Shown here: positions 1 through 2,817 of the stretch, one piece after another
Layout of the letters: the number at the start of each line of letters is the position of its first letter
Position numbering within the stretch: position 1 is the stretch's first letter
Virus record (IMG/VR): IMGVR_UViG_2529292981_000044
Length of the DNA stretch: 2,817 nucleotides
Direction: 5' to 3' (one strand)
Source of the DNA: a virus
Lineage: Duplodnaviria > Heunggongvirae > Uroviricota > Caudoviricetes
The notes under the pieces: model-generated
Seen by the model: only the letters and a program-made list of their open reading frames with translations
What the model was told of the DNA's origin: nothing
The model's database searches: none
Position numbers and translations under genes: made by a program

Positions 1-177
1 CAAGCAGATGAGCTGATTTTTCCGTCCCTGCGCAGGGCAAACCTGGCGCTGCGCAGGGCGAAAAGTGATGTTCAGAAGTGGGAGCGAGTCTGCGCCGCGC
101 TGCGGGAGCTGAACAAGCACCGGGATATTGTTCGACAGATTACTGATTCTTCCCGCCGTGTTGTATCGGAAAAGTGA
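1..177 (+). CDS. 3' end of an unidentified upstream gene (partial; 58 sense codons entering from the left edge)
   Basis: Frame 1 is open from position 1 to TGA at 175-177 (QADELIFPSLRRANLALRRAKSDVQKWERVCAALRELNKHRDIVRQITDSSRRVVSEK). It has no ATG, which explains its absence from the ORF track. The SD of the next gene (GGAGG 183-187) starts 6 nt after the stop, an operon-like junction. No family recognised. Confidence 0.35.
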   Translation, partial: QADELIFPSLRRANLALRRAKSDVQKWERVCAALRELNKHRDIVRQITDSSRRVVSEK

Positions 178-1272: not shown

Positions 1273-1288
1273 CCGCCCGAAAGGGCGG
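1273..1288 (+). other. Perfect 6-bp GC stem with GAAA (GNRA) tetraloop in the intergenic spacer; not a canonical terminator (no U-tract)
   Basis: CCGCCC (1273-1278) / GAAA / GGGCGG (1283-1288), exact reverse complements, optional G-U closing pair 1272/1289. AGGAGG (1267-1272) lies immediately 5' and ATG 1291 / GTG 1298 immediately 3'. Confidence 0.4.
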
Positions 1289-1297
1289 TAATGAAAA

Positions 1298-1669
1298 GTG
1301 ACTGAATTAACCAAAGAGAAATTAATCGAAGAAGCCAAATTAAAAATAGCGATTGCGAAATGCTACCCCAATTCAGGGATGGCACGGGTAGAGGGCGAGT
1401 TATTCAAAATTGCACTGGCATCGCTGGAAGCAGAACCGATAGCGTGGGAATGCGGTGAAAACATAATCCTGTTTAACCCTGACACAGTTGAAGCATACGC
1501 AAAACGTGCGGAAATATCACCTAAACCACTATTCTCCGCGCCGCCAGCGCTGGTAGTGCCTGATAAGTTGCCGCGTGAATACAGAAACGGTTGGCCTCTT
1601 GCGTATAGTGATTATGCTGAAGGCTGGAACGACTGCCGCGAAGCCATGCTTCAGGGAGATAAATCATGA
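1298..1669 (+). CDS. Hypothetical prophage protein, 123 aa; resembles (from memory) the N-terminal portion of Ea22-like / DUF551-associated lambdoid accessory proteins
   Basis: The frame opens after TGA 1292-1294; the first start is GTG 1298, with the next in-frame ATG at 1379 (Met28). Stop TGA 1667-1669 overlaps the next ATG (ATGA). The motifs PIAWECGENIIL, PLFSAPPALVVPD and AEGWNDCREAMLQG resemble the conserved 'VAW ... APPAPVVPD ... GYNxCRxAML' stretch I associate with Ea22-like phage proteins; unverified. Confidence 0.6.
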   Translation: MTELTKEKLIEEAKLKIAIAKCYPNSGMARVEGELFKIALASLEAEPIAWECGENIILFNPDTVEAYAKRAEISPKPLFSAPPALVVPDKLPREYRNGWPLAYSDYAEGWNDCREAMLQGDKS

Positions 1670-2016
1670 TTAATCGTATCAAGCTGGAGCACATCCTCGA
1701 ATATGCCAGGCAGCAGAGGCATATTGGTCAGCATTGTAAAATTCCACCAGGAGATATGGTTGAAATCATGGAGATTGCCATGCGCAAGGCTGGCAACTCT
1801 CCGGTAACTCCGGATGGTTGGATAAGCTGTAGTGAGCGAATGCCGGAGAAATACGATTTCGATATCTGGGTATTCTCTCCATCCAGAGGTGTTCTTGACG
1901 GGCTACAGTGGGATGGCTCGATGTTTACTGATGATGAATATCAGTTCGTTATTCATGACGCCACGCATTGGATGAGAAAAGTATATCCAGCAGCACCGCA
2001 GCAGGATGGTGAATGA
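1666..2016 (+). CDS. Hypothetical prophage protein, 116 aa, with a DUF551-like C-terminal region
   Basis: ATG 1666 with AGGGAGA (1653-1659) 6 nt upstream, ATGA overlap with the upstream gene; stop TGA 2014-2016. The segment DGWISCSERMPEKYDFDIWVF...QWDG matches my recollection of the DUF551 signature (W-I-S-x-x-D/E-R-L/M-P-E followed by hydrophobic strands); family call from memory. Confidence 0.65.
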   Translation: MINRIKLEHILEYARQQRHIGQHCKIPPGDMVEIMEIAMRKAGNSPVTPDGWISCSERMPEKYDFDIWVFSPSRGVLDGLQWDGSMFTDDEYQFVIHDATHWMRKVYPAAPQQDGE

Positions 2017-2102
2017 TGCCGCCAGTTAAAGTTGTGATTATCACTTTGGTGATGATAGTGATTGCGAGAATCATGTCTGGTGAAATTGTGTGGATATGGT
2101 AA
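2013..2102 (+). CDS. Unannotated 29-codon hydrophobic small ORF (MMPPVKVVIITLVMIVIARIMSGEIVWIW); candidate leader peptide or small membrane/toxin-like peptide
   Basis: ATG-ATG at 2013-2018 overlaps the upstream stop (ATGA at 2013-2016), with AGGA (2003-2006) 6 nt upstream; in-frame to TAA 2100-2102. 13 of 29 residues are Val/Ile and only 1 is Leu. Below the apparent length cutoff of the ORF track. Coding status uncertain because the same bases form GTGAT repeats. Confidence 0.3.
   Translation: MMPPVKVVIITLVMIVIARIMSGEIVWIW
2034..2062. repeat. Cluster of GTGAT pentamers including a GTGAT-t-ATCAC palindrome; possible protein-binding site array
   Basis: GTGAT at 2034-2038, its inverted copy ATCAC at 2040-2044 (palindrome centred on T2039), and direct copies at 2049-2053 and 2058-2062; related GGTGA at 2008-2012 and 2079-2083. 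Read directly from the sequence. Confidence 0.3.
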
Positions 2103-2132
2103 TGGCTAAGGCAGCAGCAGAGCGCAACTAAC

Positions 2133-2160
2133 AATCCTCGCACTCGCGGGGATTTCTTTT
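2133..2160 (+). terminator. Intrinsic (rho-independent) terminator, first of a tandem pair
   Basis: Stem AATCCTCGC (2133-2141) / loop ACTC / GCGGGGATT (2146-2154), 9 bp with one G-U pair, immediately followed by the U-tract TTTCTTTT (2153-2160). Confidence 0.6.
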
Positions 2161-2165
2161 ATCTG

Positions 2166-2190
2166 AACTCGCTACGGCGAGTTTTGTTTT
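2166..2190 (+). terminator. Intrinsic terminator, second of the tandem pair, abutting the next gene's RBS
   Basis: Perfect 7-bp stem AACTCGC (2166-2172) / loop TACG / GCGAGTT (2177-2183), followed by TTTTGTTTT (2182-2190). GGAG of the downstream gene begins at 2193. Confidence 0.6.
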
Positions 2191-2203
2191 ATGGAGACAA
2201 GAA

Positions 2204-2548
2204 ATGTCAGATTTGGCTATGAAGGTTTTGAAATGGCAATCAACTGGCGATGTCGGCATCAGTAGCGCAACTCTTGCCTCAATCGCATGTGGCCTGAAAA
2301 AGAATATCTATGGTCATGGCTTCGGTGCTCCACATGACGCAGCCGATTTCAGACGATGCGTTGCACTTGTTGAGCAGATTCCAGAAATCAGAGATTCATT
2401 CGACAAGGTTGCAAAGCGCGTTCCGGCATTCAAAGGAATCCTCAACGAATGGGATTCCCTCGTTGCTCTGTTGAAGTCTGAAATGAAGATACACGGAAAC
2501 AAAGCACCAGAGACTTACAGAAGAATCAGCGAGCTACGCAAGGACTAA
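2204..2548 (+). CDS. Hypothetical protein, 114 aa, unknown function; terminator-insulated cargo (moron-like) gene
   Basis: ATG 2204 with GGAG (2193-2196) at 7-nt spacing; stop TAA 2546-2548. Preceded by tandem terminators and followed by hairpins and a U-tract. Translation MSDLAMKVLKWQSTGDVGISSATLASIACGLKKNIYGHGFGAPHDAADFRRC... matches no family I recognise. Confidence 0.7.
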   Translation: MSDLAMKVLKWQSTGDVGISSATLASIACGLKKNIYGHGFGAPHDAADFRRCVALVEQIPEIRDSFDKVAKRVPAFKGILNEWDSLVALLKSEMKIHGNKAPETYRRISELRKD

Positions 2549-2584
2549 CGCCTCACACTCGATGAGGCCTGTTCATATCTGATA

Positions 2585-2610
2585 GAGCCGCTATATGGCG
2601 GTTTCTTTTT
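2585..2610 (+). terminator. Probable intrinsic terminator downstream of the 114-aa gene, preceded by a second hairpin
   Basis: Stem CCGC (2588-2591) / GCGG (2598-2601), extendable by A-U and G-U pairs, running into TTTCTTTTT (2602-2610). A separate 6-bp hairpin GCCTCA (2550-2555) / TGAGGC (2563-2568) lies just upstream without a U-tract. Weaker than the 2133-2190 pair. Confidence 0.45.
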
Positions 2611-2625
2611 GCCTGGAGAATTAAG

Positions 2626-2817
2626 ATGACCGATACCAGCCTGATTCCTGAGAAAGAAGTGATGAACAAGCTCGGTGTTTCATCACGTCAGACAATCTGG
2701 AACTATACCAAACGGCACGGATTTCCGAAGCCAGTCAGAACCCACCCCAAATCATACCTTCGTGAAGCTGTTGAAGGGTGGATTCTTAACGGTGGCGTTA
2801 ATCAGAAATGCTCCTGA
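2626..2817 (+). CDS. AlpA/Xis-family excisionase-like helix-turn-helix protein, 63 aa (prophage CP4-57 AlpA-type regulator / excisionase family)
   Basis: ATG 2626 with GGAGA (2615-2619) at 6-nt spacing; stop TGA 2815-2817 is exactly the last triplet of the window. The segment EVMNKLGVSSRQTIWNYTKRHGFPKPVRTHPKSYLREAVEGWI has the layout of small phage excisionase/AlpA proteins (helix, Gly turn, recognition helix, then FPKP-type wing, then W-containing C-terminus). Family call from memory. Confidence 0.75.
   Translation: MTDTSLIPEKEVMNKLGVSSRQTIWNYTKRHGFPKPVRTHPKSYLREAVEGWILNGGVNQKCS

Follow-up and report, generated by a model that had tools for sequence, protein, structure and literature searches.

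A 114-codon gene framed by terminator-like hairpins upstream of xis is probably an accessory gene of the lambdoid early-left operon

INTRODUCTION

The window considered here is the whole of a 2,817-nucleotide stretch of DNA from a virus of the class Caudoviricetes (IMG/VR record IMGVR_UViG_2529292981_000044). Near its 3' end it carries an open reading frame (ORF) of 114 amino acids that stands between terminator-like hairpins, just upstream of an excisionase gene (xis). Is such a gene a piece of cargo, expressed on its own and insulated by its own terminators in the manner of a moron, or does it belong to the operon in which it lies? A preliminary description of the locus had taken the first view. 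The ORF is a real, selected gene that is already annotated in published phage genomes, in a well-described region. It is likely a non-essential accessory gene of a lambdoid, Shiga toxin (Stx)-type prophage, lying in the exo-xis part of the early-left (pL) operon, where it would fill the last, variable slot 5' of xis.

2204 to 2548, plus strand: the 114-amino-acid ORF (ORF114 of phage 434; HK022 gene 32; PHROG 1229), with an ATG start, encoding a soluble, basic protein with seven predicted helices

RESULTS

The ORF is a conserved gene of annotated phages

The start codon of the ORF is preceded by a Shine-Dalgarno sequence, GGAG, at 2193 to 2196, with a spacing to the ATG of 7 nucleotides. The encoded protein is 100% identical to the product of an annotated gene in the Stx2 phages 1717 (gp03) and 2851, and is 93 to 99% identical to proteins of mEp234, mEp213, mEp043, HK022, 434 and Salmonella g341c (95 to 97% for HK022, 434 and mEp234); P22-like phages have a homologue at about 62% protein identity. 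The deposited name in the phage 434 record (M60848) is "ORF114," and the phage 1717 record cites similarity to HK022p30 and to "ORF114 (phage 434)." Indeed, ORF114 of 434, HK022 gene 32 (HK022p30), mEp234 gp27 and Stx2-1717 gp03 are the same protein, full length and in the same place 5' of xis. There is no substantial difference between these copies and the one in the window, whose sole local variant is G39, mostly histidine in the relatives. Among five phage copies, the ratio of nonsynonymous to synonymous substitution rates (dN/dS) was 0.08 to 0.24, which is purifying selection.

The exact protein occurs on at least 1,000 contigs, where its name is always "hypothetical" or "prophage protein." An identical ORF in AP012530 (Stx2a_F349; hit H77) is labeled "lipoprotein." That label looks like an annotation artifact, because the protein has no signal peptide and no conserved lipobox cysteine: its top 19-residue hydropathy is 1.02, D16 falls within the would-be signal, and C29 is unconserved, being leucine or valine in relatives.

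The preliminary description had stated that the protein matches no family, and this is correct for some libraries and incorrect for another. Neither the single protein nor a 53-member profile found an informative match in Pfam, NCBIfam, PADLOC or PDB sequences, and 0 families among the PADLOC-DB defense profiles were hit at E values up to 1. The match to phrog_1229, however, has an E value of 3e-51 and is full length, with residues 1 to 114 on profile positions 1 to 113 of 116, and it places the protein in a family of about 2,440 clusters. The PHROG 1229 entry is annotated as of unknown function, and no library that we searched gave a function name. A literature search on ORF114, HK022p30, the accession numbers, phrog_1229 and the hairpin sequence found no paper.

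The ORF lies on the operon strand between the recombination genes and xis

In 1717, mEp234, HK022 and 434, the ORF lies on the operon strand, with the recombination module (exo/bet/gam or erf) on one side and xis on the other, which places it in the exo-xis region. In the annotation of phage 1717, gam, bet, exo, a DksA-like gene, an Ea22-like gene, the DUF551 gene and the ORF (gp03) share one strand, with int opposite and convergent; the record leaves xis unannotated, between the ORF and int. The mEp234 record annotates pL, together with an N-like gene and operon terminators 5' of the ORF, and directly 3' of the ORF an xis of the "AlpA family." The genes that flank the ORF in the window are as follows.

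1666 to 2016, plus strand: DUF551 (P22 EaA-like) gene, the 5' neighbor of the ORF (Pfam E value, 4.9e-10)
2626 to 2817, plus strand: xis, an AlpA/HTH_17-type excisionase of 63 amino acids, of the 2851-type sbcB-site integration module

The preliminary description had named the same two neighbors, along with an Ea22-like gene. The DUF551 assignment is borne out by Pfam. The excisionase gave a Pfam E value of 0.003, which is below the cut-off, and matched PHROG 66, "excisionase," at 1.9e-8. An Ea22-like identity was confirmed for none of the ORFs within the window. The order eaA/DUF551, ORF114 homologue, int is identical in P22-like phages.

The flanking hairpins are shared elements of the operon

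The ORF had been described as bracketed by terminators, and terminator-like hairpins are indeed present on both sides, two in tandem upstream and one downstream.

2133 to 2154, plus strand: T1, a terminator-like hairpin of 9 pairs with loop ACTC and tail TCTTTTATCT; homologue of predicted lambda t3
2165 to 2184, plus strand: T2, the second tandem terminator-like hairpin, of 8 pairs with loop TACG and tail TGTTTTATGG; homologue of predicted lambda t4
2550 to 2568, plus strand: the post-stop hairpin GCCTCACACTCGATGAGGC, without a U-tract (-8.7 kcal/mol; z, -2.9), part of a linker that accompanies the ORF's 3' end
2585 to 2610 (hairpin, 2585 to 2604), plus strand: T3, a terminator-like hairpin of 8 pairs with U-tract, tail CTTTTTGCCT, immediately 5' of xis; counterpart of predicted lambda t5

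The calculated folding energies were -13.1 kcal/mol for T1 (z, -5.7) and -11.9 kcal/mol for T2 (z, -3.7), with 0 of 200 shuffled sequences as stable in either case; T3 is of moderate stability (-10.5 kcal/mol; z, -2.0; 7 of 200 shuffles as stable). A terminator scan of the whole window found 6 against 2.7 ± 1.8 expected, which is weak evidence alone, and T1 to T3 are credible because they are conserved. In an alignment of seven phages, including lambda, T1 and T2 are nearly invariant, and the homology starts exactly at T1, the sequences 5' of it being different. The changes that do occur in the stems keep the pairing (U.G to U-A in T1 of 434; U-A to U.G in T2 of lambda), and, since they are few, they give modest covariation support. 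In a local comparison, window positions 2129 to 2206, which run from T1-T2 to the ATG, share 93.6% identity with the segment that separates ea8.5 from orf55 in lambda. The t3/t4 tandem pair of that segment is what we take to be lambda tL3. T3 corresponds to the hairpin between orf55 and xis in lambda, with the right arm and U-tract in common. Lambda t3, t4 and t5 are themselves terminators predicted by ARNold (Bloch et al. 2014, PMC4195576, Table 4).

The downstream hairpin moves with xis. The right arm and U-tract of T3 are kept in every examined AlpA-type xis copy of this kind, and the full hairpin in four of five; in the remaining locus, L012, the 3' end of orf55 supplies the left arm. In lambda-type xis genes the tail is the same but the stem is another one, and one P22-type module has no hairpin. 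The stem sequence of the pre-xis hairpin differs among lambda, HK022 and the window, while a stem and U-tract are kept in each. Read from the sequence, T1 to T3 are fixtures of the pL (exo-xis) operon, not private to the ORF.

The post-stop hairpin was observed in several settings. In the form GCCTCACACT(C/A)GATGAGGC, together with about 35 nucleotides on its 3' side (CCTGT.CAT.TCTCAA.ATATCCAGACCTACC), it is conserved beside three different integration modules (window 2550 to 2580, plus strand; L003, 5303 to 5350; L014, 2846 to 2895; L022, about 2865 to 2915). It is also found 3' of yfdT in locus L011 and 3' of the 62%-identical P22-like homologue, and in HK97, HK75, mEpX2 and locus L013 it is kept along with a 49-nucleotide relic of the 3' end of the ORF. 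Covariation gives no evidence here because the stems never vary. One might ask whether this hairpin is a signal for RNA processing or stability.

The ORF shows neither the promoter nor the base composition of a moron

The view that the ORF is a moron-like cassette with terminators of its own did not hold up. No promoter-like site near the ORF passed a consensus scan. A relaxed scan of the 254 nucleotides upstream gave a best score of 8 of 12, and 274 of 300 shuffles reached at least 8. Just 19 nucleotides separate the T2 stem from the ATG. The guanine-plus-cytosine (GC) content is 0.47 to 0.48 over the ORF and 0.45 to 0.47 in the flanks, and the ORF is co-oriented with the pL operon. It does share with morons a presence or absence between otherwise adjacent genes of related phages, and there is a terminator-like hairpin, T3, on its 3' side, but T3 moves with the xis module, and the corresponding hairpin of lambda stands 3' of orf55. 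With no upstream promoter recognized and an ordinary base composition, the ORF is probably not a moron.

The slot before xis is variable and the ORF moves as a module

The preliminary description had also suggested a synteny comparison, and this bore out the idea of a variable slot. Of 5,426 complete E. coli genomes, 915 (17%) carry the ORF at a coverage of at least 80%. The same genomes include 534 with an xis of the window type, and in 272 of these the ORF adjoins it; elsewhere yfdT, an orf55 homologue or a 79-amino-acid ORF stands 5' of the same xis. The ORF is found beside lambda-type and P22-type integration modules as well, making three unrelated integration modules in all.

Of the joints between these arrangements, those upstream of the ORF fall in a short patch.

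2187 to 2197, plus strand: U-tract and Shine-Dalgarno patch, TTTTATGGAGA, in which the cassette joints fall

In HK022, 434 and the E. coli prophage locus L014, the order is T1-T2, orf55, a t5-like hairpin, TTTTATTGGAGACAAGAAATG, the 114-amino-acid ORF, the post-stop hairpin and xis, with an extra terminator-like hairpin 5' of xis in HK022 and 434 and none in L014. L012 has orf55 alone, and the window, 1717 and mEp234 have the 114-amino-acid ORF alone, with T2 joined straight to GGAGACAAGAAATG. T1-T2 stand 5' of orf55 in HK022, 434 and two E. coli prophages. The patch, as TTTTATGGAGA or TTTTATTGGAGA, precedes orf55 as well as the 114-amino-acid ORF in other phages, and its consensus is TTTTAT(T)GGAGA. 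On the other side of the gene, breakpoints cluster directly 3' of the stop codon, just 5' of T3, or within the last 49 nucleotides of the ORF, and the 49-nucleotide relic is retained in HK97, HK75, mEpX2 and others. These comparisons show that the ORF moves between phages as a module, with joints at the U-tract/Shine-Dalgarno patch and just 3' of the post-stop hairpin. The last slot before xis is a conserved socket, punctuated by predicted terminators, for varied small genes that include orf55, ORF114 and yfdT.

The protein belongs to a large family of early phage proteins

The protein is soluble and basic (isoelectric point, 9.2), with no signal peptide and no membrane segment. Its AlphaFold model (predicted local distance difference test, 93.2; predicted template modeling score, 0.86) has seven helices and a long loop at residues 29 to 45. 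A search of viral structures in BFVD retrieved uncharacterized phage proteins only, and searches with the protein and the profile gave no fold or sequence match to a nucleotide-binding protein, an enzyme or a defense family.

Conservation was read from an alignment of 53 members (A2) at 29 to 60% identity, with residues numbered on the window protein. S20, P43, D45, D48, R51, C52 and W83 are invariant, and W11, G18, S21, L55 and P60 nearly so. The preliminary description had singled out a Gly/His-rich segment; its GHGFG part proved variable, whereas the adjoining AP-D--DF-RC part carries five of the seven invariant residues. In a reading drawn from the predicted helices, without coordinates, S20 to T23 and D45-P-x-D48 look like N-terminal helix caps, P60 would open helix 4, and the tryptophans and leucine would belong to the core.

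An exhaustive profile search retrieved 2,440 representatives (clustered at 50% identity) at E values of 0.001 or less, 414 of them at 1e-10 or less. Among retrieved members, the full domain stands alone in 180 and is extended at the N terminus in 42 and at the C terminus in 8; one is a tandem duplicate (P0068) and one a fusion (P0145), in which the domain lies C-terminal of a tRNA nucleotidyltransferase and HD enzyme. The fusion comes from a single 1.9-kb contig and has an internal methionine where a separate gene would start; its tRNA nucleotidyltransferase is the only partner domain in the fusions that PHROG and Pfam recognize. Members of the C-extended class, of 266 to 291 amino acids, have basic tails of the form ...R/K-x-A-A; P0080, P0083, P0093 and P0131 also belong to the variant architectures. 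A set of 19 members, 177 to 206 amino acids in length, shares a conserved N-terminal alpha/beta extension. In the two loci examined (L020, region 6141 to 10038; L021, region 6135 to 10055), the family genes, P0280 and P0249 respectively, have stop/start overlaps with an exonuclease VIII-like DUF3799 gene and with a gene for an SbcC-like AAA_23 ATPase (phrog_1499). In both loci the ATPase is followed by a phrog_3657 protein, and the elements also encode a PriCT/Toprim primase, a single-stranded DNA-binding protein (SSB) and helicases.

The family is present in 279 annotated phage records, always among early genes; the records include PY54, the Mu-like SuMu, 60-kb Vibrio podoviruses, and Arthrobacter and Clavibacter phages. 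Its neighbors in these early regions are genes for DnaB, methylases and exonucleases. On two phage-sized metagenomic contigs, the family gene has DnaB, methylase and DUF3799 genes around it, and no integrase lies within 6 kb; in a Burkholderia prophage, it lies near an HTH_17 gene and an opposite-strand integrase. Across distant loci, the only conserved neighbor found was DUF3799, in three. With homologues in the early regions of such different phages, the family is not tied to lysogeny.

The window is a mosaic and holds further small elements

Positions 1407 to 2817 of the window are 99.9% identical to the int-proximal end of the Stx2-converting phages 1717 and 2851, and positions 1 to 1845 are 98 to 99.8% identical to one set of O157 and O145 prophages. 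We regard the window as a mosaic because no complete E. coli genome spans 80% of it, and no phage record does so either.

The integrase gene lies just past the window end, on the opposite strand, in related loci (L001, 5392 to 6570, minus strand; L002, 4672 to 5850, minus strand) and in 1717, 2851 and mEp234-type phages, and in these phages int and xis overlap at their 3' ends by 20 nucleotides. Any int transcription that was not stopped would therefore be antisense to xis and the 114-amino-acid ORF. On the minus strand, none of T1 to T3 resembles a terminator.

Several smaller elements were observed upstream of the ORF. An unannotated ORF of 28 amino acids, MPPVKVVIITLVMIVIARIMSGEIVWIW (2016 to 2102, plus strand), begins with an ATG that overlaps the DUF551 stop codon (ATGATG) and ends 30 nucleotides 5' of T1. 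It is strongly hydrophobic (mean hydropathy, 1.8 over residues 5 to 23) and could be a small membrane peptide. A toxin-antitoxin pairing with the 114-amino-acid ORF was rejected, as the two do not co-occur in mEp234, HK022 and 434. Between a 70-amino-acid ORF (1050 to 1262) and a 123-amino-acid ORF (1298 to 1669), there is a 6-bp, all-G:C hairpin with a GAAA loop (CCGCCC GAAA GGGCGG; 1273 to 1288, plus strand). It lacks a U-tract, and its form is like that of the predicted t3 of phi24B (CCGCC TTCG GGCGG; PMC4195576). An imperfect palindrome, CCCTGCGCAGGGC / GCGCTGCGCAGGG (26 to 58, plus strand), with 13-nucleotide arms spaced by 7 nucleotides, lies inside the truncated first gene and overlaps a direct repeat, CTGCGCAGGGC(A/G)AA, at 28 to 41 and 49 to 62. 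A search of the window against Rfam gave no family.

DISCUSSION

The explanation that we prefer, to which as a whole we assign a probability of roughly 0.55, has a genomic and regulatory part and a molecular part. We are fairly sure of the former. The exo-xis genes are described as early genes driven from pL that the phage can do without in the laboratory (PMC4195576, PMC8614690). If the ORF behaves as lambda biology would predict, repression of pL keeps it silent in the lysogen. By comparison with lambda and phi24B, it would be made together with Xis only when N-modified RNA polymerase passes T1 and T2, soon after infection or induction. The molecular part is a tentative proposal. The small, soluble, basic, all-helical product may bind a host or phage macromolecule during lytic growth, in host takeover, in counter-defense or, like other exo-xis genes, in adjusting the choice between lysis and lysogeny. 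A binding role suggests itself because the invariant residues look like helix caps and core, C52 included, plus one arginine (R51). The product is probably no enzyme and probably gives no protection to the lysogen.

Several points weigh against this explanation. The binding mechanism is read solely from the size, the fold type and the conservation pattern of the protein, and the invariant Arg-Cys pair could, with two invariant aspartates, form a ligand or catalytic site. Termination at T1 to T3 and N-type read-through are predicted here, and the lambda counterparts are computational predictions too. A consensus scan could miss a weak or non-sigma-70 promoter, and one may lie upstream of the ORF. 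The fusion of P0145 to a tRNA nucleotidyltransferase, on one contig, hints at a role related to nucleic acids, and the same hint comes from the clade in which the gene stands between those for an exonuclease VIII-like protein and an SbcC-like ATPase.

Other explanations share part of this evidence. The ORF could be moron or lysogenic-conversion cargo, with its own expression in the lysogen, its own insulating terminators and a function in superinfection exclusion or defense. A variable slot and hairpins on both sides would suit such cargo, and defense and exclusion genes are generally known to occupy variable prophage positions. We nevertheless consider it quite unlikely, given that there is no above-chance promoter and little space for one between T2 and the ATG, that the predicted terminators are common operon elements found around orf55 in lambda, that GC content is typical, and that PADLOC gave no match. 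Relatives of the ORF lie in non-lambdoid early regions and on phage-sized contigs without a nearby integrase, and in 2851-type phages convergent int transcription would pass antisense through the gene. A modulator of the lysis-lysogeny decision like orf60a, orf61, orf63, orf73 and ea22, with host transcription or CII/CIII stability as its target in place of host defenses, has rather better standing and is still improbable. The ORF has its operon, timing and dispensability in common with exo-xis genes, several of which shift lysogenization and induction in assays (PMC4195576, PMC8614690, PMC3824215), and the alternative occupant of the slot, Orf55, has been modeled as a possible RNA polymerase modulator, speculatively according to its authors (PMC8614690). 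However, actinobacterial phages also have the family, as do phages and phage-sized contigs that lack an integrase nearby, and there the target cannot be a decision circuit specific to lambda.

That the protein is a small-molecule or nucleic-acid binder or an enzyme, with a site formed by S20/S21, D45, D48, R51 and C52, for instance a sponge for defense nucleotides or a factor that processes RNA or DNA ends, we think unlikely. The invariant residues are mostly polar, but they fit helix-capping and core roles, and no fold or sequence match to a nucleotide-binding protein or enzyme was found. The P0145 fusion to a tRNA nucleotidyltransferase and HD enzyme favors such a function, but it comes from a single 1.9-kb contig and has the internal methionine. 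The genomic context is similarly two-sided: the N-extended relatives, 19 in number, lie in the two loci examined in an apparent operon between exonuclease VIII-like and SbcC-like ATPase genes, and in lambdoids, PY54 and SuMu the gene is downstream of recombination or Gam genes, yet no neighbor is kept across distant loci save DUF3799 in three. An accessory role in site-specific recombination, in which the protein would aid Xis or Int in directionality control, is very improbable. The ORF does adjoin xis in three unrelated integration modules, and a relative is near an HTH_17 gene and integrase in the Burkholderia prophage, but half of the prophages with the same xis and int are without it, as are lambda, HK97 and many others, and some relatives have no integrase near.

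Returning to the preferred explanation, an accessory gene of the pL operon, the element itself is ordinary, an annotated hypothetical gene whose predicted terminators belong to the operon. What remains of interest is a large, unnamed phage protein family without a known fold relative. It is possible, and we hold this loosely, that the ORF114/PHROG 1229 domain is a new fold, made early by phages of Proteobacteria and Actinobacteria, which neutralizes a broadly conserved host factor or immune pathway. If so, this would be an unrecognized, widespread family for counter-defense or host takeover, to which proteins of the classical phages 434 and HK022 would belong. Its function should be reachable by simple genetics, because 17% of complete E. 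coli genomes have the ORF, as do tractable K-12 phages (434, HK022, mEp234 and mEp213).

Several known systems provide a comparison. Morons such as cor of HK97/HK022 and bor and lom of lambda are, like the ORF, single genes that are present or absent in related phages, and they have a terminator downstream, where the ORF has the terminator-like T3; the ORF differs in that it shows neither its own promoter nor an atypical composition, is oriented with the early operon, and has predicted terminators common to that operon. The defense hotspots of P2- and P4-type elements, with which the locus had been compared, are likewise variable loci beside integration genes. That analogy did not carry over, since the element is of a different type, the occupants are small early genes and not multigene defense systems, PADLOC gave no match, and the relatives lie in early regions of other phage types. 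A closer likeness is to the exo-xis genes carried by lambda and by Stx phages (orf60a, orf63, orf61, orf73, ea22 and ea8.5), which are in the same operon, early, driven by pL and dispensable in the laboratory; the ORF has no sequence or fold kinship with them, and its family reaches far beyond lambdoid phages. The same architecture is found in the orf55 slot of lambda, between ea8.5 and xis, where tandem predicted terminators are followed by one small gene, another predicted terminator and xis. The occupants are unrelated, Orf55 being a 55-amino-acid alpha/beta protein (PMC8614690) and the window protein an all-helical one of 114 amino acids, and in HK022, 434 and some E. coli prophages the two genes stand in series.

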